DNA from: a virus | Taxonomy: Duplodnaviria; Heunggongvirae; Uroviricota; Caudoviricetes | Strand: one strand, 5' to 3' | Virus record (IMG/VR): IMGVR_UViG_2925908680_000001 | Length of the DNA stretch: 64,000 nucleotides | Shown here: positions 1 through 61,200 of the stretch, piece after piece | How positions within the stretch are numbered: the stretch's first letter is position 1 | Layout: every line of letters starts with the position of its first letter | Translations under genes and position numbers: made by a program | The notes under the pieces: generated by a model | Seen by the model: only the letters and a program-made list of their open reading frames with translations | What the model was told of the DNA's origin: nothing | Database searches by the model: none

Positions 1-837
1 ATTGTTCTTAACTCGGAAGAATCACCGTTCGTCACACCACAATTCATCAAGCAGAAGCTTCTGGAATATGGTGGGCGCGATTCTATTGAGTATATGGTCA
101 AGGTGCTTGGTCAGTTCCCACGAGAAATTAACGGCTATTTGCTTGGTCGTGATGAATGCGATCGCGCTGCTCGCCGCAAGGTGTTGTTGGAGAAAAACTG
201 GGGATGGGTGGCAACGGCTGACGTTGGTAATGGGCGAGATAAGTCGGTCCTCAACATCTGCAAGGTATCTGGTCACAGGGATAAGCGGCGCGTTGTTAAC
301 TTTAAGGTAATGGAGATGCCTGGCACTATGGACCCATTGGCCTTTGCTGACTTTATATATAACGAATGTACGCCGGAAAAATACCCGAATATAACAATCG
401 CGGTTGATGCCGATGGTTTTGGTTCTGATACGTGTGCGCAGTTGGTGCGTCGTGGTGCGAACCCGGTACGTATTCGGTGGGGAAAACCCATGTTTGCGAA
501 CAAAGACAGGGAGCGATTTGTTAATCAGCGTGCCTACGCAAATATTATGGCGCGTGATGCCATAAAGTCAGGGCGTATGCGGATAGACAGTGACCCAAAA
601 ACGGCAGAGCAAGCGTCAAAAATCCCCTTTTTACTGAATGAGGAAGGGAAAATGGCGATGATGCGCAAAGAGCACATGCGGCAAAAGCTAAACATCAAAT
701 CGCCTGACCGATGGGATACCTACTGCTTCACTATGCTGGTGGACTATGTGCCTGCTAATGAAGATATTGGTGCCGAAATGGCAACTTTCCGAGATCAGGT
801 TCTGGCGGATATCGAAATGCCAGATCTGGATATATAA
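1..837 (+). CDS. terminase large subunit (PacB-like), C-terminal nuclease part; 5' end outside window
   Basis: Frame 1 is open from base 1 to the stop at 837; translation has an RNaseH-like acidic motif (IAVDADGFG); it sits beside the recombinase module where pacB lies in P1. Confidence 0.55.
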   Translation: MVLNSEESPFVTPQFIKQKLLEYGGRDSIEYMVKVLGQFPREINGYLLGRDECDRAARRKVLLEKNWGWVATADVGNGRDKSVLNICKVSGHRDKRRVVNFKVMEMPGTMDPLAFADFIYNECTPEKYPNITIAVDADGFGSDTCAQLVRRGANPVRIRWGKPMFANKDRERFVNQRAYANIMARDAIKSGRMRIDSDPKTAEQASKIPFLLNEEGKMAMMRKEHMRQKLNIKSPDRWDTYCFTMLVDYVPANEDIGAEMATFRDQVLADIEMPDLDI

Positions 838-838
838 A

Positions 839-855
839 GCCCCGCTATGCGGGGC
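839..855. terminator. GC-rich hairpin between convergent genes
   Basis: gccccgc-tat-gcggggc inverted repeat directly after the stop at 837; weak T-tract. Confidence 0.4.
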
Positions 856-864
856 CGGTTGTGA

Positions 865-1902
865 TTACCAGAGCTTCGCGGCGTACTGCGTTTGGGGGAA
901 TGTGTATCCGTAACGTTCTTCGATTGCTTTGCCGTATTTTTTACGAGCTTCATTCAGTTTAATGCCGGTCAGGTCGTCTCCAGAGGCCATCATTACGTCT
1001 AACAATTCCAGATCCATTTTATCTAGCCTTGCCATTGCTTCACGTGATGTACGTATCTTACGCTCAATGATATGGCGAATAGCCGGATCGGCATCCTCCA
1101 GCATCTTAGCGGATTTCTGCTTAAGGCTTTCATTGCGAATATCGATGTTCCTTAAGATGTACGACTTCGCAACGTAGCTTGGCTGGTGTTTTTCTAGGTC
1201 ACGAACACGATATAAGTTAAAATCGCCGAGAAGGCTGCAAGGTACCGATTCGACGCCAGAATAAATTGTAATGCTCCGGCGTTCACCAACATTATTGACA
1301 ACGGGGATCGTTGTCTTCGGTAGTCTTGCGAAAACCAATGCGCCATGTGCGCCAACTCTAAAGCGAGAAAGGGCATTGCTGCCTTCGATGTTTGTTGTCA
1401 GCACAACATCTGTATATGCCTCTTTACGCGCCCGGTAGATCTCGCCTTCAGGCTCAGCTTCAAAGAAGCGCTGTTCTTCTTCAAGAGCACCTACAATTTG
1501 AGAAAAAACCCTATTTTTCAGGCTTTTCTTTATGATTTTGTCGTATTTTTTGAGCAATTGTTCACGTGTAAATGTACGTGTTGTTGTAGCGCTTTGCACA
1601 ACAACATGCGTGCTTTGATTGGTGTCCTCAATGATGAATGGGATCGGAGAATATACAGACTCAACAATGTTCGACGCTTTGCCGTCGGCATCGCGGCACA
1701 TGTCAACGAAGGCTTTCCATTCAGCAAGACATTTTTCAGCTTCTTCTAATATGTTTTGGTCATGCGTTAATGCAACATGGCGGAATTCCTCGCCAGCATA
1801 ACTGGTATCATGGAAAACAGAGTTTGCGACCACCAGCTCTTTCCACCGTTCAGCGGTTTGCAGGAACCGTTTGTACTCTTTCTCGATCGACTTCTTACTC
1901 AT
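865..1902 (-). CDS. hypothetical protein, 345 aa
   Basis: Long ORF with no recognised motif; occupies the position where c1/coi lie in P1. Confidence 0.6.
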   Translation of the reverse strand: MSKKSIEKEYKRFLQTAERWKELVVANSVFHDTSYAGEEFRHVALTHDQNILEEAEKCLAEWKAFVDMCRDADGKASNIVESVYSPIPFIIEDTNQSTHVVVQSATTTRTFTREQLLKKYDKIIKKSLKNRVFSQIVGALEEEQRFFEAEPEGEIYRARKEAYTDVVLTTNIEGSNALSRFRVGAHGALVFARLPKTTIPVVNNVGERRSITIYSGVESVPCSLLGDFNLYRVRDLEKHQPSYVAKSYILRNIDIRNESLKQKSAKMLEDADPAIRHIIERKIRTSREAMARLDKMDLELLDVMMASGDDLTGIKLNEARKKYGKAIEERYGYTFPQTQYAAKLW

Positions 1903-2112
1903 TATTCCTACTCGATTTAGTTTTCTAACATAAAATTACTATGACAAATTTATGTCGAATAACAGAGTGAGTAAAGGATCGAACTGTGATTTTTTGTCAT
2001 CAATTTTAGAAAACCAACTGTATAAACCACACTTCGCAAATTAAAGACCATGAAGGCAACGTGTTACTGGTCAAAATCAATCTATGATGGATTAAAAAAA
2101 ATCGCCATTTTG

Positions 2113-2144
2113 TAACTTTAAATAATTGGCATTATTTAAAGTTA
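2113..2144. other. rox-like recombination target site (14-bp perfect inverted repeats, 4-bp spacer)
   Basis: TAACTTTAAATAAT-TGGC-ATTATTTAAAGTTA; its reverse complement matches the rox site of Dre as I recall it; about 150 bp upstream of the recombinase gene. Confidence 0.8.
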
Positions 2145-2296
2145 GGCTATAATCATGTGTAGATGAACAGTGTTGACATCACTGAAAATACGTGCCTCGA
2201 ATCAAAGGTTTGTATTTTGAAAATTAACTTATAGCTACCCTGTCATTTTTATATTTTTCGCGTAGCGACATCTGTATATAGAGGTGAAATAGTTTC

Positions 2297-3325
2297 ATGA
2301 GTGAATTAATTATCTCTGGCAGTTCCGGTGGTTTTCTGCGCAACATTGGCAAAGAGTACCAGGAAGCCGCAGAAAACTTTATTCGGTTCATGAATGACCA
2401 GGGGGCTTATGCGCCGAATACACTGCGCGACCTCCGGTTAGTGTTTCATTCCTGGGCGCGCTGGTGTCACGCTCGCCAGCTTGCCTGGTTTCCGATCTCA
2501 CCAGAAATGGCCCGCGAGTATTTTCTTCAGCTGCATGATGCCGATCTGGCTTCGACCACCATTGATAAGCACTACGCCATGCTGAACATGCTGCTTTCGC
2601 ATTGTGGCCTTCCGCCACTTTCGGATGATAAAAGTGTTTCTCTGGCTATGCGGCGCATCCGGCGCGAAGCGGCAACTGAAAAAGGCGAACGAACAGGCCA
2701 GGCTATTCCTTTGCGGTGGGATGATCTGAAACTGATCGACGTCCTGTTGTCCAGGTCAGAACGGCTGGTGGACCTGCGCAACCGGGCTTTTCTCTTTGTT
2801 GCATACAATACGCTGATGCGTATGTCGGAAATCTCGCGTATTCGCATAAGAGATCTGGACCAAACAGGTGACACTGTCACGTTGCATATTTCACACACGA
2901 AGACAATAACGACCGCAGCCGGGCTTGATAAGGTGCTTTCCCGTCGCACTACTGCTGTGCTGAATGACTGGCTGGAGGCTTCCGGGCTTCGTGAACATCC
3001 TGACGCGGTGCTGTTCCCGCCGGTACACCGTAGCAATAAGGCCAGGATTACGGCAACGCCCCTTACTGCGCCTGCAATGGAGAAAATATTCAGCGACGCC
3101 TGGGTGTTGCTGAATAAAGGAGATGCTACGCCAAACAAAGGAAGATACCGGACGTGGACCGGGCATAGTGCACGCGTCGGGGCCGCTATCGATATGGCTG
3201 AAAAGCAGGTATCTATGGTGGAGATTATGCAGGAAGGAACCTGGAAGAAACCGGAAACACTTATGCGGTATCTGCGCCGTGGCGGCGTGTCTGTGGGGGC
3301 TAATAGCCGCCTGATGGATTTGTGA
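2297..3325 (+). CDS. dre: Cre-family tyrosine recombinase, Dre-like
   Basis: 342-aa translation aligns along its length with P1 Cre from memory (WFPxxPExxRxYLL, LAFLxxAYNTLxRxxEIxRIR, HSARVGAA, EIMQxGxW) and matches my recollection of Dre. Confidence 0.9.
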   Translation: MSELIISGSSGGFLRNIGKEYQEAAENFIRFMNDQGAYAPNTLRDLRLVFHSWARWCHARQLAWFPISPEMAREYFLQLHDADLASTTIDKHYAMLNMLLSHCGLPPLSDDKSVSLAMRRIRREAATEKGERTGQAIPLRWDDLKLIDVLLSRSERLVDLRNRAFLFVAYNTLMRMSEISRIRIRDLDQTGDTVTLHISHTKTITTAAGLDKVLSRRTTAVLNDWLEASGLREHPDAVLFPPVHRSNKARITATPLTAPAMEKIFSDAWVLLNKGDATPNKGRYRTWTGHSARVGAAIDMAEKQVSMVEIMQEGTWKKPETLMRYLRRGGVSVGANSRLMDL

Positions 3326-3398
3326 ATTAAATTTCTAACACATCTTTTTAGATTAACATCTTTGCTGTAAAGTACCCTCGCCTATTTAGGAGGGTGCT

Positions 3399-3743
3399 TT
3401 GCAGAGTCAAATCACGGAATCAAGACGCTTCAAGGTGGATGGTTACACCGTAACCTTCGCCGCTGGTGTTAAGAACAGTCATGCTGTCGTTGTGTTCGGC
3501 ATCATGACCGGGCTTGAGGCCGTCCCTGTGTTTACCCTCGAAAAAAACTGGCGAAATCTGGAGGAAGCAGAAAGCTACGTCCGGAAAGTAACCATCATTG
3601 CCGCCGAAAAACTCCTGGCCCACTATCAGGAAAATTATCGCACTATGGTCGAGAAGATTAATCTCGCTTTCACTCGCCCCACTACCGGCTTTATCGCACC
3701 AGATACTAATGCAGGTCGATATCCTGCAAGGGGGCGTCGGTGA
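3399..3743 (+). CDS. hypothetical protein, 114 aa
   Basis: ORF with an RBS-like AGGAGG upstream; no recognised motif. Confidence 0.4.
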   Translation: MQSQITESRRFKVDGYTVTFAAGVKNSHAVVVFGIMTGLEAVPVFTLEKNWRNLEEAESYVRKVTIIAAEKLLAHYQENYRTMVEKINLAFTRPTTGFIAPDTNAGRYPARGRR

Positions 3744-4216
3744 AAACTTATTACCCATCTCTGAATTGTTACCCGTCTTCCTATCCAGAATTGTCCGGGA
3801 AGCTGTTAGCTCTATTAGCTAAAGCACCTACGGAATGGTTTAAGCCAGTCGTTATTAATCCGCACTTCCAGGATTACGGATCTGTTCGTACTCGTAACGA
3901 ACTCAAAAACCTACTGGCGCATGGATTCATTCGACACCGTGCCGGGAAAGGCTATCAGTTAGCGATTGCGCCAGAAGAGGCCGTGCGGCTATTCGCATAT
4001 CGTGACAGCCAGACAAAAGCTCGGGTAATAGCTCAAATACTTCATAACGGCAGCACCTATGCCCGCCAGTTTGGCGGCGACACGTCGCAGTTCTTGCGGG
4101 CGGTGCGATCGCTGGAGGAGCAAGGAGTTATTGAAAGTTCCTGTCTTCCTGTTCCTACCGTTCCACATATCAAACGTCGGGTTTACACCTTCACGCAGAG
4201 AGCTAAAAAACTATGA
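3740..4216 (+). CDS. hypothetical protein, 158 aa
   Basis: ORF overlapping its neighbours by 4 bp, consistent with an operon; no recognised motif. Confidence 0.5.
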   Translation: MKTYYPSLNCYPSSYPELSGKLLALLAKAPTEWFKPVVINPHFQDYGSVRTRNELKNLLAHGFIRHRAGKGYQLAIAPEEAVRLFAYRDSQTKARVIAQILHNGSTYARQFGGDTSQFLRAVRSLEEQGVIESSCLPVPTVPHIKRRVYTFTQRAKKL

Positions 4217-4707
4217 TTTACGTAAAAGTGAAACGCCTACATCCGGCAGCAAAACTTCCAGCTTATGCCACCTCCGGATCGGCGGCGATGGATTTTGAGG
4301 CTGTTGAAATAACACCATGCGTCGATAGCAATGGTGAAATTTCCTCAAGCTGGTGGGTGCATACCGGACTGGCTATGGAGATCCCGCCCGGCTGGTGTCT
4401 GAAACTCTATCCGCGCTCCGGGTTGGGTTGCAAAAAACATACCCGCCTGGCTAACTGCGTAGGAATTATCGACTCCGATTATCGCGGTGAAATCATGGCA
4501 AAACTGATTGCTGATCCCGGCGGGGAAGGCGTTTGCCTCAAGCCTGGAATGGCTGTTATGCAAGGCATTTTTGAGCGTGTTGAACAAGTCTCACTAGTCG
4601 AGGTTGAGGAACTCAACGAAACGGAACGTGGTGCTGGTGGCTTTGGTAGCACATCGGAAGGCCACTTTGAAATTAAGCGTTCACCGCTTCAGTACGAAAA
4701 GTTATAA
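4213..4707 (+). CDS. dut: dUTP diphosphatase
   Basis: dUTPase motifs in translation (AGxDL-like SAAMDF, PRSG, GIIDSDYRGE). Confidence 0.85.
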   Translation: MIYVKVKRLHPAAKLPAYATSGSAAMDFEAVEITPCVDSNGEISSSWWVHTGLAMEIPPGWCLKLYPRSGLGCKKHTRLANCVGIIDSDYRGEIMAKLIADPGGEGVCLKPGMAVMQGIFERVEQVSLVEVEELNETERGAGGFGSTSEGHFEIKRSPLQYEKL

Positions 4708-7358: not shown

Positions 7359-7748
7359 TTAAATAACCGGACAATCATCAAACTCCCCAATTCGGGCATC
7401 ATTGATGACATGAGTGATCACACCAAAAACAGCATTACTGCCCGTGCATCCATCGTCATCTACTGGTAACGCCTCTTTCTTCCCGGTGCTTAAATCCTCC
7501 AGGTGCTGGCGCGGATACTTCCTGTATCTCTTTATGCGATATTCACCCTCCATAGCGCAGACAAGTAGCGAACCATCAACCGGAGTAAGTGAGGAATCGA
7601 CCACCAGCAAAGCACCCTGCAATATTCCCTCACGGTGATGGCTATCAGCTGCCCGCATGAAGTAGGTTGCTGATGGATGCCTGATTAGTTGCTGATCAAG
7701 AGAAATTCGGCTTTCAACATAATCCGCCGCAGGAGAAGGGAAGCCCAT
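7359..7748 (-). CDS. humD: UmuD-like S24 peptidase (HumD-like)
   Basis: UmuD/LexA C-terminal domain features; adjacent to phd-doc as in P1. Confidence 0.8.
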   Translation of the reverse strand: MGFPSPAADYVESRISLDQQLIRHPSATYFMRAADSHHREGILQGALLVVDSSLTPVDGSLLVCAMEGEYRIKRYRKYPRQHLEDLSTGKKEALPVDDDGCTGSNAVFGVITHVINDARIGEFDDCPVI

Positions 7749-15036: not shown

Positions 15037-16032
15037 TCAGTTATTGAACGTGATCACTCCGCGCTCGATGGCGAAGTCGAAAAGCTGGTTGGCGGCTACG
15101 TAAAGGCGTATGCCATGTGCTTTTTCCCATGCCCGGACATCGTTTTCTGCGCTTCTGGCGCATTCATCGCAAAGAGGAACGGCCCAGCGATCGTGTTCGT
15201 TTAACGAGCGGGCGCGGTACATGAACGGGTGGTTAACTTTGCCACCGCATCCGATGCACGGACGAGAAACCACAAACCGGAGATAAGCCGGGCTTTTACC
15301 GAGGACCGCTTTTGGTCGGCGCATATACAGCAGGCCAGAATCCTCATCTACAGACAGGTTGACGATCTGCTCTGCGGTTATGTCCACCAGCTCGCGCGTA
15401 CTGCGCTCCCAGGTGATATCTGATTCTTTCAGCGTACCGGTAGGGATGTCAGTTTTTGGCTGACAAAATGCAATGCGACCAGCTTCATCAGGCAGTTCGT
15501 CTTTAAGATTCCGGCGAATGGCCCAAAAGGTGAGTTCAACCATGCTCAGATCGCGATCTGGCGGAAGTTTTAACTCGCTGGCAGCCCAGTTCATAATCCA
15601 GTTGGCGCGATTCAGTGACAGTTGGTCTTCCAGCTTGCCGTATCCCTTCATCATGTATTCCGCATCATGCTTCCAGCACAGGCGAACGGCAGAACCGTTA
15701 TAGAAGTGAGTGGTTAGCTGGTGGCTACAATCGCGCTTATCATGCGCCTGGCAATCGTGAATGTTGGTGCTAACCCAGTGAACGATAGAATCCTCGCCAC
15801 CTAACGCATTAAATACGCGCTCACTTTGAAAAAAGGGTGTCAGTGACTGGTTGGCAACCAGGGAATAATTCAGGTCCACGACGCCATCAGGGGTGTTTTC
15901 AGCCTGTTCGCGCGGCAATGGGGAGATAAGAAAACGGCGACCGGCGCCGATGTAATTGCTGGTGGGCTTATCTACAGGAAAGACAGCCACACCAGTTTCA
16001 TTTACGACATATGGGGTGATTATTGCACTCAT
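15037..16032 (-). CDS. hypothetical protein, 331 aa, with C-terminal Cys cluster
   Basis: CIGCGG...CDEC zinc-binding-like C-terminus. Confidence 0.55.
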   Translation of the reverse strand: MSAIITPYVVNETGVAVFPVDKPTSNYIGAGRRFLISPLPREQAENTPDGVVDLNYSLVANQSLTPFFQSERVFNALGGEDSIVHWVSTNIHDCQAHDKRDCSHQLTTHFYNGSAVRLCWKHDAEYMMKGYGKLEDQLSLNRANWIMNWAASELKLPPDRDLSMVELTFWAIRRNLKDELPDEAGRIAFCQPKTDIPTGTLKESDITWERSTRELVDITAEQIVNLSVDEDSGLLYMRRPKAVLGKSPAYLRFVVSRPCIGCGGKVNHPFMYRARSLNEHDRWAVPLCDECARSAENDVRAWEKAHGIRLYVAANQLFDFAIERGVITFNN

Positions 16033-16136
16033 AATGCATACCGACTCTGTTTTGTTCCGAGCGGTAAAATAATATGTTAGAAAATTAAAATCAACAATCT
16101 AACACGATTTTGAGCGCGTAAACGATGTAACCCGGC

Positions 16137-19481: not shown

Positions 19482-19726
19482 AACATAAGCACTGCGAAAA
19501 GCTCAATACCAAGCTCAAGTAGCGCCAACGCCCCGAAAAACAACACATAGAACAGGCCAATCTCATTCACAGATGGCTGGTGGATCGCACTTAAAGCTAT
19601 AAGCATCATGTCCTCCAAACAGTTATCAGGAATGATATTAATGTTTTGTGTTAGAAAATCAATTTTGAATATCTAATCATTTTGATCAATCATAGAAAAA
19701 TCGCTGAAAAGTAAGAGGCAGCCATC

Positions 19727-20305
19727 ATGCAGAAACAGAGCTATTGGGAGAAACAGAGACAAAAAGCCATGCAAAAATTGGCTGACCCAGCCTGGCGAGA
19801 GGAACAAAGGGCAAAGCGCCTTCAACAAGCTCAACGCCAGCAGCAGCGAGCGAGAGAAAAAGCCGCATCGCCTGAATATCGGCAAAAGAAAATTGAAAAA
19901 GCAAAGCAATATGAACAGCGGAGAAAAGATAAAGCTGTATCCGCTCCGTCCAAAAAAACACGCACGTCACGCGGCCTGAAAGGCAGATCACTCACAGCCG
20001 ATGAACGCCGGATACAGACCGCTATCGGTGCTCTCCCCTGCATTGCCTGCCATATTCACGGGCAACATAGCCCAGTGGTATCCCTGCACCATATCTTCGG
20101 GAGAACGGCAGAGAACGCACATAGATATGTCCTCCCTTTGTGTAAATGGCACCACCAGTACGCAGCGCCAGCCGAGGTCCGAGAACAATATCCCTGGCTG
20201 GTCCCTGTTCATGCTGACGGAAAAATAGGCGGAAAAGCAGATTTCATGCGGCACAATGCCGATGAAATGACGTTGTATCAGATGGCGATTGAATTGATAA
20301 ATTAG
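19727..20305 (+). CDS. Ref-like HNH endonuclease
   Basis: Basic N-terminus and HNH-like C-terminus (CIACHIHG...HHIFG...CKWHH), as in P1 Ref. Confidence 0.55.
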   Translation: MQKQSYWEKQRQKAMQKLADPAWREEQRAKRLQQAQRQQQRAREKAASPEYRQKKIEKAKQYEQRRKDKAVSAPSKKTRTSRGLKGRSLTADERRIQTAIGALPCIACHIHGQHSPVVSLHHIFGRTAENAHRYVLPLCKWHHQYAAPAEVREQYPWLVPVHADGKIGGKADFMRHNADEMTLYQMAIELIN

Positions 20306-20909
20306 TTTTCTAACATTTTAAGTTGAATTGTAAATTTCTCCGATGTACATTCACTACCGATTGGCACACCGGTCAACTTTTTGAGACAAACTGTTTAGTT
20401 TTTCGTATTATTGCCGCCGCTATACCTATGGCGGTGCAATATAGGTGGCTGAAAAGCCCCCGTTGACTCACGGTGTTCCAGCCTTTATTGCGCCGCCACC
20501 AGACCGTGGAACAGTCGATGGCGGCTCCGAAAGCAAGGAGTCACCACACTATGAACAGCTACTGTCTTTTCCCATCACTCGTTGTCCGCCACTCACGCGA
20601 TAATCTGCATTCTTTACTCGCGCTGGGGGTGTCAAAATGACCGTTCGCTACCTCAACTTTCAAATCCAGAACATCACTGGCGGTTGCTATGACTGGTTTG
20701 TCACTCTCGGAAAAGAAGTGATCACCGGGAAGCTGGATGAAGTGAAAGCTAAAGCAATGGCCTACGCCTGCAAGCAAGCCCGGAAGAAATCCGCCAAAGC
20801 ATAAAATACTGACTGTTGCGCCCTGGCATTATCGTGGGGTATATTTCTACGGCACCTTAGAAAAACGGGTGCCGGGATTGGAACCCCGGATAATGCAAAA
20901 GGCGACACA

Positions 20910-20931
20910 GACGCCGAAAGCGTCTTTTTTT
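20910..20931 (+). terminator. rho-independent terminator
   Basis: gacgc-cgaaa-gcgtc hairpin followed by a run of seven T. Confidence 0.55.
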
Positions 20932-21116
20932 GTGTCATGCCATCGCACAGCCATACGTAGCGTTTAGCTCAGAGATCAATGGTAGTGCTGGCTGGGCTGC
21001 CGAAAGGCAGGCCGGTTCCCTTTTGCGCCGGTAGTTCCAACCCAGTCAGTGCTACCGCCATTGAGATTGGAACCTCACGCGGTAGCTCCTTAAATTAGCA
21101 AAAGGAGGCTGCCAAT

Positions 21117-30461: not shown

Positions 30462-30520
30462 AAAATGCACCCATTTGTGTTAGATAATTAACATGTATTT
30501 TCTAACACAAATGGTGAGAC

Positions 30521-31426
30521 ATGAGATCAGTCGCTTTCAAAAATATCTTCATCTATCGTCTTTCACGCGAAGTTAGCTGGGATACTGCAGCGGTAAACGC
30601 TGCTCTTGGCAAATTTGTGTTTACCCCATGCGGTTCTCAGGACATGGTTAAAGCTGGTTGGACGCCTGTTCTTGGCAACAACCTCACACATGAATACCAG
30701 GGTTTTCTTCTGATACAGCATAAACGAGAGGAAAAAATCCTACCTTCTCAAGTGCTCAAAGAAGAGTTACAGAAAAAAATCCTGACACTTGAAGAAGAGC
30801 AAGACAGAAAGCTGAAGAAGACCGAAAAAGATTCGCTGAAGGATGAAGTGCTTCACTCTCTTCTTCCTCGTGCTTTCACGAGAAAATCACTCGCCAAAAT
30901 CCTGATCGACCGCAGCAACCATCTGGTATTCGTTGAGGCAAGCAGCGCCAAAAAGGCAGAGGACCAGCTGGCTTTATTGCGAAAATCGCTCGGCAGCCTG
31001 CCTGTCATTCCATTCACACCACGCGAACCGCTGGAAATTACAATGACCGAGTGGTTTAAAAACGGCTTCCCTGCCGGATTTACAGCAGGTGAAGACGCCA
31101 CATTAAAGGGTCTGCTCGATAATGGTGGTGCCGTTCGCTGCAACAAAGTTGATCTACAGTCCGACGAGATTATGTCTCACATTGAGGCGGGGAAAGTAGC
31201 TACGACCGTTGCAATTAACTGGATGGAACGCGCGTCGTTCAGAGTCAACGATGATATGAGTATCAAAGCCCTGACATTCTGTGATGATCTCTATGACCAG
31301 AACGACGATATCGACCGGGAGGATGTAGCACAACGATTTGATGCTGATTTCGTGCTCTTTACGGGCGAATTATCTGCACTGTTTAACGCGCTGGTGGAGG
31401 CCATTGGCGGTGAAGCAGAACGATAA
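30521..31426 (+). CDS. rdgC: recombination-associated protein RdgC homolog
   Basis: Collinear with E. coli RdgC (FKNxxxYRLSRE, FTPCGSQDM, KEEKILPSxV, KKTEKDSLKDEVLHSLLPRAF, LALLRKSLGSLPV). Confidence 0.85.
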   Translation: MRSVAFKNIFIYRLSREVSWDTAAVNAALGKFVFTPCGSQDMVKAGWTPVLGNNLTHEYQGFLLIQHKREEKILPSQVLKEELQKKILTLEEEQDRKLKKTEKDSLKDEVLHSLLPRAFTRKSLAKILIDRSNHLVFVEASSAKKAEDQLALLRKSLGSLPVIPFTPREPLEITMTEWFKNGFPAGFTAGEDATLKGLLDNGGAVRCNKVDLQSDEIMSHIEAGKVATTVAINWMERASFRVNDDMSIKALTFCDDLYDQNDDIDREDVAQRFDADFVLFTGELSALFNALVEAIGGEAER

Positions 31427-39503: not shown

Positions 39504-39869
39504 GCTTCACAAAAGCTACATAATTATTTTGCGTTAGAAAAATAATTTGAATTTTCGAACATAAATAATAAAATAAATCATCAAAAATTTGATGTTGATC
39601 TTCCATGTTTTCAGGCTTATATTCACGCCGTCGTAGCAAATTCTGCGACCGGGTTTAGCAGCCTGAATGATTGTGCGGACAACCGCAGATTTCCGATATT
39701 GCGGTATTTTTGTGTCCGTAAACCGCGTTACGCCCGAATTATGGTGGGGCGTGATGGGGAGGCTTCGGCCTGCTGGTTTCACAATCGCCAGTCTGCTAAC
39801 CCCGTCACGTCCTGCCACCCGTTTAGCAGCGGGTAGCAGGTTGTTAAACCTGATTGTGAGGCCGTAACT

Positions 39870-40085: not shown

Positions 40086-41011
40086 TGAATCTGTCCATCT
40101 CTCAAAAAGTGACAATGACAAGTATTGAGATCGCGGAGCTGGTGGGAAGTCGTCATGACAAGGTGAAACAATCTATTGAACGACTGGCGGGACGAGGTGT
40201 AATAGCTTTTCCCCCAATGGGGGAGAAGCCCACCGCAGGCCGCCCGGCGAGCTATTACGTCTTTGAAGGCGAGCAAGGCAAGCGCGACAGCATTGTTGTC
40301 GTCGCACAGCTTTCTCCCGAATTTACCGCCCGACTGGTGGACCGCTGGCGCGAACTGGAGAGTGCCAAAGTACAGTTAAAATCAAAGGCCGAAATCCTGG
40401 CCGAAATGGCGCAAATGCATCTTGAGCATGAACGCCGGATCAACGCCGTAAATGCCCAGGTAGCCGAGGTATCAGCACAAGTGTCCAGGGTCACTGAAAC
40501 ACTTGAGCAGATCAAGAAAGGCAATATTCCGGAAGGCTACATTGGCTACCGCCAGCTGGCGGCGAAATGTGGCCTGACTGAAGCCAAATGTCGCAACCTG
40601 GTTAACGCTTTCCGGATTCCCACCGATACGCATGAGTTTTTAACTCCAGATGGTTTGCTTGCGCGACGCTCCATTGTGGCCCTGGCCCCCTTCCGGAAAG
40701 CCTTTAAGCAGGTGATGTCGGAGGCAGAACCACGCAATAAACGCTGGTATCATCCAAAGATGGGGATGTTTCAGGCAATCCACCATCCTGTGCCTGAAAG
40801 CCCAAAGGATAATCTGTCACTACATACCGTCAGAGAGAAGATCAGGACTGGATACGCAACAGTGTGTCGTCGTTCTTCCTGGCCTGAAGGTATATGGGTG
40901 TGGCCCGAAGGTGGATCACGAAAGCACTGGCGCACTATCCGAGATGGGAAAATCCATGCTATTGATTTAGCTCCAGAGGATATTGTTGCTACGGACTGGA
41001 TTGTTAGTTAA
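40085..41011 (+). CDS. ant: antirepressor Ant (copy 2)
   Basis: C-terminal roughly 250 aa nearly identical to copy 1; N-terminal roughly 60 aa divergent. Confidence 0.75.
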   Translation: MNLSISQKVTMTSIEIAELVGSRHDKVKQSIERLAGRGVIAFPPMGEKPTAGRPASYYVFEGEQGKRDSIVVVAQLSPEFTARLVDRWRELESAKVQLKSKAEILAEMAQMHLEHERRINAVNAQVAEVSAQVSRVTETLEQIKKGNIPEGYIGYRQLAAKCGLTEAKCRNLVNAFRIPTDTHEFLTPDGLLARRSIVALAPFRKAFKQVMSEAEPRNKRWYHPKMGMFQAIHHPVPESPKDNLSLHTVREKIRTGYATVCRRSSWPEGIWVWPEGGSRKHWRTIRDGKIHAIDLAPEDIVATDWIVS

Positions 41012-41019
41012 TTACTGTT

Positions 41020-41046: not shown

Positions 41047-41451
41047 CTAAAAATCTGTTCGCTGTCGCCATGCGTTTTTTAACTCAGGAATATCCGCCAT
41101 TTCAATTAACTTGCGAAGTCCAGCACTGACTTTCCCATTGCCAACCATAGCAAGCCAATCTCTTACTGCTTTCGGCATGTAGAGCGTTGCAGTTACCGGC
41201 TCTTCAACCCTGGCAGGACATCCGCATACAGGCCATTTAATTGATTCCATAACTTCGGATGCCGGGGTGAGGGCGGGGACATTGAGTATATCTCTACCAG
41301 AAAACTGGATAACGATCCGTTCAGCGAGCGAGAGTATCTCACTTTCGGCAAGAATTGATGCCAACTGCGCCTCAACAAGAAAGCGACTTGTTGTGTTCAG
41401 AGAGTGGCTCTTAGCGCCATTTTTATACGAAACAAAGATTCGATACGCCAT
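41047..41451 (-). CDS. hypothetical protein, 134 aa
   Basis: ORF only. Confidence 0.5.
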   Translation of the reverse strand: MAYRIFVSYKNGAKSHSLNTTSRFLVEAQLASILAESEILSLAERIVIQFSGRDILNVPALTPASEVMESIKWPVCGCPARVEEPVTATLYMPKAVRDWLAMVGNGKVSAGLRKLIEMADIPELKNAWRQRTDF

Positions 41452-41609
41452 AACTCTAATGATTTGTGTTAGAAAACTAAAATTAAATCACATAACAACA
41501 TGCGTGTTAATATATTTTATTTTACTAAACCTATTGACTAAATCACAAAGTAGGTATTGTTAGCCCGTCAAAAGAACCTTCACGCCGCGCCCGAATTTAG
41601 GGCTTAACC

Positions 41610-58203: not shown

Positions 58204-61200
58204 TTATGGGTGCTGATAAAACGAACAACATAATGACACTATCCTCTGGTGTCTCACAGCCGTTGCTTGCTGATGTTCAATATTTCGAACTCTATAGTAG
58301 TTCGGCTCTTAACAGAAAACTTAAAAATATTGTTTTGCCGGGCTTTTACTGTGGATTTGAACCAGTTCCCGGCACAGGGTTGAGCGTCCGTATAACTTCT
58401 GAAAACTCAGAAGGTAAAGGGGCTGCTTCAGTAGATGTAAATAATGTTCAGATATCCGTTCAGCAAATAGAAGATGTGACTGTCTCGGTAAAGGCTGGGG
58501 CTACCAACATTATTGTGCTAGAAGCCAATTTTGAACATGGTGTAAAAACGACACAGGTAGAGAGCGCATCTTCTGTCAGTGCTGCAAGAATTTACGCGCG
58601 TACGGACAATACTATTGGGCAGAATCAAATTGAATTATGTCGAGTTATCGTGCCTAACGGCGCAACGGCTGTGACGAAAGAAATGATTGTGCTTAAATAC
58701 CGGGTTAACCGTGCTGTTGGTGTCGAATTCTCTAATGAAATAAGCAGTACAGAAGAAAGAAAAGCGGCTACACCTCTGGCTGTCAAAACTCTCCATGATT
58801 TGGTTGATACAAAAGCTCCGCTCGATAGTCCACATCTGTCAGGTACGCCGACTTCGCCGACACCTGAACCCGGTACAAACAACACACAGATCGCAAATGC
58901 GGCCTTTGTCTATGCTGCTATAAATGCGCTTATCAATGGTGCTCCGGGAACGATGGACACGCTGAAAGAAATAGCGGCTGCGATCAATAACGACCCGAAT
59001 TTCAGCACAACTATCAACAATGCCCTGGCTCTTAAAGCTCCTTTGGCAAGCCCGGCGTTCACAGGTACGCCGACAGCACCTACGGCCTCACAAGGCACAA
59101 ATAGCACGCAGATTGCAAATACAGCCTTTGTTAAGGCAGCTATAACGGCACTTATCAACGGTGCACCTGGCACATTGGATACGCTGAAAGAAATAGCGGC
59201 TGCGATCAATAATGACCCGAATTTCAGCACAACTATCAACAATGCCCTGGCTCTTAAAGCTCCTTTGGCAAGCCCGGCGTTCACAGGTACGCCGACAGCA
59301 CCTACGGCCTCACAAGGCACAAATAGCACGCAGATTGCAAATACAGCCTTTGTTAAGGCAGCTATAACGGCACTTATCAACGGTGCACCTGGCACATTGG
59401 ATACGCTGAAAGAAATAGCGGCTGCGATCAATAATGACCCGAATTTCAGCACAACTATCAACAATGCCCTGGCTCTTAAAGCTCCTTTGGCAAGCCCGGC
59501 GTTCACAGGTACGCCGACAGCACCTACGGCCTCACAAGGCACAAATAGCACGCAGATTGCAAATACAGCCTTTGTTAAGGCAGCTATAACGGCACTTATC
59601 AACGGTGCACCTGGCACATTGGATACGCTGAAAGAAATAGCGGCTGCGATCAATAATGACCCGAATTTCAGCACAACTATCAACAATGCCTTGGCTCTCA
59701 AAGCGCCTTTGGCAAGCCCTGCATTAACGGGTGTCCCTACTGCGCCGACCGCCGCACAGGGCACAAATAATACGCAGATAGCTACGACCGCTTATGTAAG
59801 AGCTGCCATATCCGCATTGGTTGGTTCATCACCAGAAGCTCTTGATACCCTGAATGAGCTTGCCGCAGCACTTGGCAATGACCCGAACTTTGCGACAACA
59901 ATGACAAATGCGCTGGCAGGCAAACAGCCTCTGGATGCAACTTTAACCGCGTTTGCTGCCCTTGCGACTGGTGCAAACAAACTGCCTTATTTCACCGGTA
60001 AGGATACGGTAGCGCAGACTGATTTAACGTCAGTCGGTCGCGATATTCTGGCTAAAACAAGCACACTGGCCGTTATCCAATACCTTGGTTTAAGAGAACT
60101 CGGAACAAGCGGTGAAAAGATCCCCCTGTTGAGCACGGCTAACACATGGAGTGCACGCCAGACTTTCAACGGCGGGATCACCGGGGCGCTGACAGGGAAT
60201 GCCGACACCGCGACGAAATTGAAAACAGCCATAAACATTAATGGCGTCAGGTTCGATGGTTCTACGAACATTTCGATACCAACAATTACGTCTAGAGGAC
60301 GCGTTACTGCGCTTACCGGTACAACGCAAGGTGCTGCTACTGGATTGCAGATGTATGAGGCATACAACAATGGCTACCCTTCCCCCTATGGCAATGTGCT
60401 TCACCTTAAAGGTGCCACCGCTGCTGGCGAAGGTGAGTTATTCATTGGCTGGAGTGGCACGAGCGGTGCCCATGCGCCCGTACATATCCGTTCGCGGCGG
60501 GATACTGATTCTGCCAACTGGTCTGAATGGGCGCAGGTCTATACGTCAAAAGATTCAGTTCCCGGCGTCAATGCCAAAGGGGATCAGGATACCTCCGGCA
60601 ATGCTGCTACGGCGACCAGATTGCAGACGGCGCGCACTATTAACGGTGTCTCGTTTGATGGTTCTAAAAACATTGAGCTAACGGCGGAAGATTTAAATCT
60701 TGAGCAAACCGTAGAATTAGCCGCTGGATCATTGCAGAAAAACCAGAACGGCGCAGATATTCCAAACAAAGATAAATTTACGCAAACAATAGGTGCTTGC
60801 CGCTCTTTTCATGGTGCTATTAGCACAGGTGCAGGAAACTGGACGACGGCACAATTGATTGAATGGCTGGATTCTCAAGGGGCATTCAATCACCCATACT
60901 GGATGTGCAAATGTTCATGGTCATACGGCAATAATAAAATTATTACCGATACTGGCTGTGGAACTATTCATCTTGCAGGTTGCGTTATTGAGGTTATGGG
61001 TAATAAAGGTGCCATGACCATCCGTGTAACCACCCCGAGCACTTCCAGCGGTGGCGGAACTACTAATGCACAATTTACTTATATAAACCATGGCGCAGAT
61101 TACGCACCAGGCTGGCGGCGTGACTACAGTACCAAAAATCAGCAGCCTGCATTTGCTTTAGGGCAGACAGGAAGCACAGTTGGAAATGACAAAGCTGTTG

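Follow-up and report, generated by a model that had tools for sequence, protein, structure and literature searches.

The window analysed here is the whole 64,000-nucleotide stretch of the IMG/VR virus record IMGVR_UViG_2925908680_000001 (Caudoviricetes), which is a D6-like plasmid prophage, and the gene considered is c1, located near its left end. This open reading frame (865..1902, - strand) codes for a protein of 345 amino acids (aa), has an ATG start and is preceded by the sequence AGGA 5-8 nt upstream, as read in the sequence. By homology, it is a D6-type member of the P1/P7 C1 repressor family. The left neighbour of c1 is the 3' part of pacB (1..837, + strand), which encodes the large terminase subunit and was recognised from the listed open reading frames and from the immC record of phage D6, where pacB ends 27 nt short of the c1 stop. 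A terminator-like G+C-rich hairpin, GGCCCCGCATAGCGGGGCT, followed by a T-rich tail is found between these two convergent genes (838..856, - strand). On the other side, at only about 210 bp from c1, lies the Dre recombination site rox (2113..2144), annotated in the D6 record AY753669.1 and read in the sequence, followed by dre (2297..3325, + strand), which encodes a Cre-like tyrosine recombinase. The c1 gene of the window is therefore located between pacB and the rox-recombinase module and is convergent with pacB. In the P1 annotation, the interval between pacB and lox is occupied by c1-coi-imcB-imcA. An earlier note on this DNA, made from the sequence alone, had placed the gene at the position of the P1 c1-coi-imcAB region and had described its product as larger than C1; both statements hold, with 345 aa versus 283 aa in the P1 protein.

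The protein is 100% identical (tblastn) to the product of c1 in both GenBank records of phage D6, with accessions AAV84948.1 in AY753669.1 and ASR76322.1, named orf1 'prophage repressor', in the complete genome MF356679.1. Positions 1-4300 of the window share 98% DNA identity with the immC record AY753669.1, in which the open reading frame is annotated as 'c1, phage repressor protein, similar to the C1 repressor of phage P1'. Judged by this identity, the gene is the already annotated D6 c1, and both its identity and its proposed role are in the public record. The comparison with the D6 genome at this position, suggested in the earlier note, revealed the same protein with the same neighbours pacB, rox and dre, and the description of the gene as an orphan had to be abandoned, because the protein is identical to D6 C1 and belongs to phrog_1678 and PF27008. 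The c1 gene is carried by 99 of 5,426 complete E. coli genomes, always in a plasmid and as a single copy in each, and by 149 plasmids of PLSDB, from genera that include Escherichia, Salmonella, Citrobacter, Shigella and Pantoea. Despite the GenBank name of D6 c1, the RefSeq/PGAP label in those E. coli plasmids is mostly 'hypothetical protein', because the NCBIfam C1 equivalog cut-off (500 bits) is beyond the reach of D6-type proteins.

The relationship with the P1 repressor was found by several resources. Residues 7-237 were aligned by BLASTP with residues 8-242 of P1 C1, with 21% identity and a pairwise E value of 2e-8. Both proteins match phrog_1678 end to end (2.8e-170 for the window protein and 2.6e-140 for P1 C1), PF27008 (Phage_P7_repressor_C1) is assigned to D6-type and P1-type proteins in the precomputed Pfam annotation of a large protein collection, and NCBIfam NF041318 (phage_rep_C1) covers residues 7-240 with 25.4 bits (E value 8.9e-6). 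The local copy of Pfam-A yielded no match for either the window protein or P1 C1 because it is older than PF27008; in the same search, the window protein matched neither helix-turn-helix nor Peptidase_S24 families (no family at E<=1). From these comparisons, D6-type C1 is classified as a distant subfamily of P1/P7 C1, and not as an equivalog.

A sequence profile made only with D6-type proteins was searched against 1.84 billion cluster representatives and matched 83 clusters, with P1-type C1 clusters among them. Two main size classes were observed in these clusters, one of ~344-380 aa, mostly covered to around position 340 of the profile, and another of ~250-285 aa, covered at positions ~5-245 only, with a few proteins bearing other C-termini. 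Since the long and short classes differ in profile coverage, the sequences indicate that the family shares a core of ~245 aa, which in the D6 type is prolonged by about 100 C-terminal aa. In the window, codons 1-245 (1168..1902, - strand) correspond to this conserved alpha/beta core common to P1 C1, with a predicted Tus-like fold, and codons 246-345 (868..1167, - strand) to a helical extension absent from P1-type C1. Five residues (R41, W62, P88, R159 and G187) are invariant across 62 sequences, and almost no variation is seen at another four (F13, P86, A105 and R157). The protein is conserved from end to end in full-length homologues with identities as low as 43%, and therefore the gene is considered a real coding sequence. 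No second C1 homologue is present in the window.

The search for repeated asymmetric operator-like motifs, also suggested in the earlier note, revealed a dispersed enriched motif, TGTTAGAAAAYTA (reverse complement TTTTCTAACA). Its core, TGTTAGAAAATTA, was found by unbiased k-mer enrichment of the window. With up to 2 mismatches, the core occurs 11 times versus 2.35 expected, a number reached by none of 100 shuffles, and 12 times versus 3.7 expected when Y is allowed at position 11. With up to 1 mismatch, 7 sites were found, whereas 500 composition-matched permuted cores averaged 0.13 sites and never exceeded 3. The consensus extended to the flanks is aTTTTGTGTTAGAAAAyTAA (TTArTTTTCTAACACAAAAt in the opposite strand), and all the motif sites are located in short intergenic gaps or gene ends, adjoining gene starts. 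The possibility that the motif was a P1 late-promoter box was rejected, as it is unlike those boxes. Other enriched k-mers were also discarded as regulatory elements because Chi sites and a 222-bp tandem repeat of the tail-fibre gene account for them.

Two of the predicted C1 operators precede c1. The proximal one, TGTTAGAAAACTA (1918..1930, - strand), is located 16 bp before the c1 ATG and reads TGTTAGAAAA in the c1 orientation. The distal one, TTTTAGAAAACCA (GGTTTTCTAAAA in the c1 strand), is inverted and lies 86 bp further upstream (2004..2016, + strand), with its TCTAA 108 bp upstream of the c1 ATG, being the positional counterpart of the P1 operator Oc1a. Scans for sigma-70 promoters did not reveal a convincing c1 promoter upstream of the window c1. 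Three weak candidates are TTGTCA-17-AAAACT, which overlaps the proximal site, TTTACT-17-TAAATT, between both sites, and TTGATG-17-GATCCT, read by eye and abutting the distal site. A near-consensus sigma-70 promoter-like site, TTGGCA-16-TATAAT (11/12; 2126-2153, + strand), overlaps rox and is directed towards dre.

Another seven predicted operators are distributed along the window. One comes after the dre stop, 59 bp upstream of the start (3399) of the orf117 homologue (3328..3340, - strand), and another one, with a weak inverted partner adjoining, is 43 bp upstream of a DUF968/pdcB-like gene that occupies 15037-16032 in the - strand (16075..16087, + strand). The ref gene (19727-20305) is flanked by two of them, one 66 bp upstream that matches P1 Oref (19649..19661, + strand) and one over its stop codon (20303..20315, - strand), ahead of the first immI module and in the same position as P1 Omat. 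Two sites are bivalent, with inverted cores: that located 14 bp upstream of hrdC (30521-31426) has core centres 21 bp apart and matches P1 Odmt, found before uhr-hrdC-dmt (30478..30507), and the other one (39532..39561) precedes the second c4-icd-ant (immI) module by ~56 bp and matches P1 Oc4. The last one (41467..41479, + strand) precedes the orf52 homologue (41047-41451, - strand) by 16 bp and the major capsid gene by 176 bp. Core centres 21 bp apart were found in three independent cases of bivalent D6-type sites. In the D6 genome, outside the region covered by the window, the motif is present before lpa, repL, pmgS and the second icd-ant (immI) module. Taking the window and D6 together, many dispersed asymmetric operators of ~17 bp, with sites at c1, lpa, repL and c4 among them, are predicted in silico. 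A further core match with 2 mismatches, TGTTAGTTAATTA (41002-41014, + strand), lies at the 3' end of the antirepressor gene and is also present in D6 at 74021-74033; it is probably a chance match because its flanks do not fit the motif.

Annotated C1 operators are found at matching places in P1 (Oc1a-e, Olpa, OrepL, Oc4, Oref, Omat, Odmt and OpmgRa/b), so the predicted regulon appears to parallel largely that of P1 C1. A consensus for the P1 operator, ATTGCTCTAATAAATTT, with 22 sites on the P1 genome has been described (PMC8546580), and the most conserved stretch of 19 annotated 17-bp P1 operators is (T/A)CTAA. The window motif shares only the TCTAA core with them and does not have the operator specificity of the P1 immunity group. 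A first register, in which P1 ATTGCTCTAATAAATTT and D6 TTTGTGTTAGAAAATTA are identical at 10/17 positions, was dropped because its score was reached by 7.5% of permutations, and a register based on the shared TCTAA core plus positional orthology was adopted instead. The D6-type motif is read here as the predicted C1 operator of this lineage, in which the TCTAA core would be family-wide and the flanks would set the specificity.

The conservation of these elements was analysed in five further lineages, with C1 identities to the window protein of 51% (L009), 44% (L010), 29% (a Pantoea plasmid), 29% (a Citrobacter plasmid) and 25% (a Xenorhabdus plasmid). The order recombinase-site-c1-pacB-pacA, with lpa nearby, is kept in P1, D6 and all five. 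The c1-rox spacer of L009 and L010 is almost wholly diverged, yet the proximal c1 site TGTTAGAAAA is retained at -25 to -31 in both of them, and TTTTCTAACA is found around positions -114 to -120 with respect to the start of c1. Both L009 and L010 also have sites behind the recombinase gene and upstream of lpa, pmgS and the DUF968 gene, the site upstream of this last gene in L010 corresponding to that of the window; the site after the recombinase gene occupies the same position in D6, L009, L010 and the Citrobacter plasmid. A weight matrix trained on the L009 and L010 sites only recovered 9 of 10 window sites. In the more distant lineages, the c1 and lpa upstream regions of the Pantoea plasmid have in common the exact 13-mer GCAATTCTAAGGA, the Citrobacter plasmid contains ATTCTAAGG at c1, lpa, ref and after the recombinase gene, and the Xenorhabdus plasmid GTAAATTCTAA at c1 and lpa. 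A forward (T/A)CTAA is present 88-120 bp upstream of the c1 start in 7/7 lineages, including P1, where it is the annotated operator Oc1a, and its flanks vary with the C1 lineage.

A structure of a C1 homologue was not found in the PDB by a sequence search with the family profile, and predicted models were used. The full-length AlphaFold model (predicted local distance difference test, pLDDT, 85.8; predicted template modelling score, pTM, 0.56) shows an alpha/beta core (1-232) followed by a long hairpin of helices (233-306) and then by a small bundle, also helical (316-342). The model of the core alone, made with a 62-sequence alignment, reached pLDDT 94.0 and pTM 0.83 and shows an alpha/beta fold with long strands. 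When this core model was compared by Foldseek, the sole significant matches were four chains of Tus (E values 2e-8 to 4e-7, probability 1.00, template modelling (TM) scores 0.42-0.52), and the next match had an E value of 0.059. The core is thus predicted to have a Tus-like fold. At the sequence level, the Ter family profile PF05472 did not match the window protein in the local Pfam-A, and Tus was not retrieved in the PDB sequence search with the C1 family profile. The structure-based search proposed in the earlier note has therefore given a significant match with the fold of Tus and no link with its sequence. Tus is a monomer when bound to the asymmetric Ter site, which it contacts with interdomain beta strands, and it uses TerB to repress its own promoter. 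In the C1 core model, R41 is placed on strand 39-46 and R157 and R159 on strand 155-171, an arrangement that would fit a Tus-like mode of binding. No paper linking C1 and Tus was found in a literature search.

The C-terminal extension (~100 aa), kept in homologues of as little as 43% identity, has no Pfam match and no similarity to Lxc. Our best guess is that this extension mediates self-association, which could be of use at the bivalent sites with 21-bp spacing or in forming a loop between both c1 sites; alternatively, it could be a docking surface for the antirepressor.

Other proteins of the P1 system were also searched for. With P1 queries, tblastn did not detect Coi, Lxc, ImcA or ImcB in the window or in the D6 genome (best E value 0.03). 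Coi and Lxc are proteins that shape the lysis-lysogeny decision of P1 (PMC8546580), and it has been described that lxc is not detected and that the control of lysogeny in D6-like phages differs substantially from that of P1 (PMC6799933); the absence of Lxc in our tblastn searches is consistent with this remark. The sole antirepressor route visible in the window consists of two c4-icd-ant modules, which represent secondary immunity, each behind a predicted operator. The corresponding C4 antisense RNAs are located at 20975..21062 (+ strand, Rfam RF01695, 76.7 bits) and 39737..39822 (+ strand, RF01695, 70.5 bits), and c4-a1b1 target sites were found at 39617-39669, upstream of the second one. These two immI-type modules are separate (20852-21062 and 39617-39822), an icd and an antirepressor gene come after each of them, and an isrK-like RNA is present upstream of the first; P1 has one module.

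Taken together, these data suggest that c1 encodes the primary lysogeny (immunity) repressor of this D6-like phage-plasmid, a divergent and longer member of the P1/P7 C1 family, with a probability that we estimate at about 0.85. The earlier note had considered both a primary repressor and a replaced accessory gene. The first proposal is supported by the homology to P1 C1, the same genomic position and the presence of the motif at the places of P1 operators, while the second one does not agree with the collinear homology to P1 C1 over ~240 N-terminal aa. The proposed mechanism, including the binding of C1 to DNA, its stoichiometry and the repression that would follow, is as follows. The ~245-aa core would recognise asymmetric operators of ~17-20 bp with the consensus given above, which would be dispersed over the genome at or near promoters. 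The Tus-type core would allow the asymmetric site to be read without a helix-turn-helix, possibly by long beta strands with invariant arginines. The two inverted sites before c1, the distal one at the place of P1 Oc1a, would provide autoregulation, and the sites before lpa and repL (in D6, outside the window) would block late transcription and lytic replication. The regulon would be completed by the sites before ref, hrdC-dmt, the pdcB-like gene, the orf117-dut operon, orf52 and both c4-icd-ant modules. Since Coi, ImcA/B and Lxc are missing, de-repression presumably occurs through the c4-controlled antirepressors.

Several results weigh against this interpretation. The identity to P1 C1 is just 21%, the 25.4 bits scored with NF041318 do not reach its equivalog cut-off of 500 bits, and tblastn against the phage collection retrieves D6 only, and not P1, even at E<=10; therefore, pairwise and profile comparisons were needed to show the homology. 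No match to the P1 operator consensus was found in the window at up to 3 mismatches. The sigma-70 matches that overlap the predicted sites are weak (8-9/12) and expected by chance in A+T-rich DNA. The link between protein and motif is circumstantial, and another factor could bind the motif. The similarity to Tus is at the fold level only, comes from a predicted query structure and has TM scores of 0.42-0.52, and an alignment by hhalign between the C1 family and E. coli Tus was not significant (probability 7.6%). In a search for diverse Tus homologues, none of the matches listed fell below 81% identity to E. coli Tus, so that they provided no Tus profile. Finally, a literature search retrieved no experiment on D6 C1, and we know of none, so that the repressor activity rests on the homology to P1 C1.

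Alternatively, the C1 homologue would no longer be the master repressor, acting for example as a specialised regulator of a few genes, with a different factor holding immunity and binding TGTTAGAAAA. Together with the low identity and the NCBIfam score far under the equivalog cut-off, the lack of Coi, ImcA/B and Lxc, the two c4-icd-ant modules and the substantially different lysogeny control described for D6-like phages with respect to P1 (PMC6799933) are in line with this explanation. However, c1, lpa, repL and c4, which are the key switch points in P1, all carry the motif, the distal c1 site is the counterpart of Oc1a in seven lineages with flanks that vary with the C1 lineage, and the window contains no other C1 homologue. 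A loss of the master role is thus considered unlikely. Even less probable is that the protein acts in the manner of Tus, as a polar barrier to replication forks or helicases at dispersed sites on the plasmid prophage, although Tus is its sole significant structural neighbour and the asymmetry and dispersion of the sites would agree with this role. Its homologue P1 C1 has been established by experiment as a repressor of transcription, with operators that overlap promoters (P1 annotation; PMC8546580), the sites of the window are just upstream of gene starts and not around a replication terminus, and the protein has no sequence membership in the Ter family. An unrelated accessory gene in the place of c1, for which only the null local Pfam-A result and the failure of the phage tblastn to reach P1 could be invoked, is already refuted by the collinear P1 C1 homology found in four independent resources and has a negligible probability.

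A broader proposal can be made tentatively, to which we give somewhat less than an even chance. The whole P1/P7/D6 C1 family would be a Tus-fold DNA clamp in which (T/A)CTAA is read by the strands that carry R41, R157 and R159, the flanks of each lineage would set immunity specificity, and the C-terminal extension of D6 would replace the functions of P1 partners, such as Lxc co-repression or looping and antirepressor docking. If this were true, a terminator protein of chromosome replication and a repressor of phage immunity would belong to a single structural class.

As the identity of the gene was already known, the finding itself is not a discovery and has a modest weight. The operator motif with its regulon, the family-wide TCTAA core at a conserved position and the Tus-like fold may be new, in a comparison that left two key D6 papers outside. 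The assignment to the C1 family corrects the label 'hypothetical protein' in most of the ~100 E. coli phage-plasmids carrying c1. The predicted operator set provides a testable immunity map for D6-like phage-plasmids, which are common in E. coli and Salmonella, and depicts a system without Coi and Lxc. How C1 reads asymmetric operators without a helix-turn-helix is an old question, which the Tus-like model and the TCTAA core make specific and testable.

Some additional features were observed in the window and in the related plasmids. Variant rox-like palindromes are present beside Dre-like recombinases in L010 (9725-9756, TAACTTTAGATAACTCCCATTATCTAAAGTTA) and in the Citrobacter plasmid (L014, ~7599-7630, TAACTTTATATAACCCCCATTATCTATAGTTA), and they could constitute new heterospecific recombinase/target pairs. 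The Chi octamer GCTGGTGG has 35 copies in the 64-kb window (22 in the + strand and 13 in the - strand) versus about 2 expected, and Chi-containing words also dominate the k-mer enrichment lists of the Pantoea plasmid (L012) and L010. The tail-fibre (S-like) gene contains four tandem copies of the 222-bp unit (58959-59690), and repeats are annotated in the same region of the P1 gene S.

Compared with phage D6, the window element has an identical C1 and shares the neighbours pacB, rox and dre, but it departs from D6 elsewhere, for example in the second immI module, which in the window adjoins the capsid region. Repressors of the lambda CI type have the same role in lysogeny maintenance and immunity, but they consist of a helix-turn-helix N-domain and an autocleaving S24 C-domain and bind to dyad-symmetric operators, whereas D6-type C1 matches neither domain and has another predicted fold and asymmetric predicted operators. 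The predicted fold of the C1 core resembles that of E. coli Tus (PF05472; PDB 1ECR, 4XR0), which in contrast is a chromosomal fork-arrest protein and not a phage repressor, with unrelated DNA sites and no detectable sequence relationship. With respect to the P1/P7 system, the D6-type system lacks coi, imcA/B and lxc, its predicted operators have different flanks (TTArTTT-TCTAA-CACAAA versus ATTGC-TCTAA-TAAATTT in P1), the bivalent sites are 21 bp apart whereas those of P1 Oban and Oc1ab overlap with an offset of 11 bp, and, unlike P1, an extra inverted predicted site is located just before the c1 ribosome-binding site. Both systems have in common a homologous ~245-aa C1 core encoded in the same strand between pacB and the recombination site, and also, as predictions in the D6 type, dispersed asymmetric operators that share (T/A)CTAA, some of them bivalent, with an autoregulatory site ~100 bp upstream of c1 and others at lpa, repL, c4, both ends of ref, hrdC-dmt and pmgR/S.

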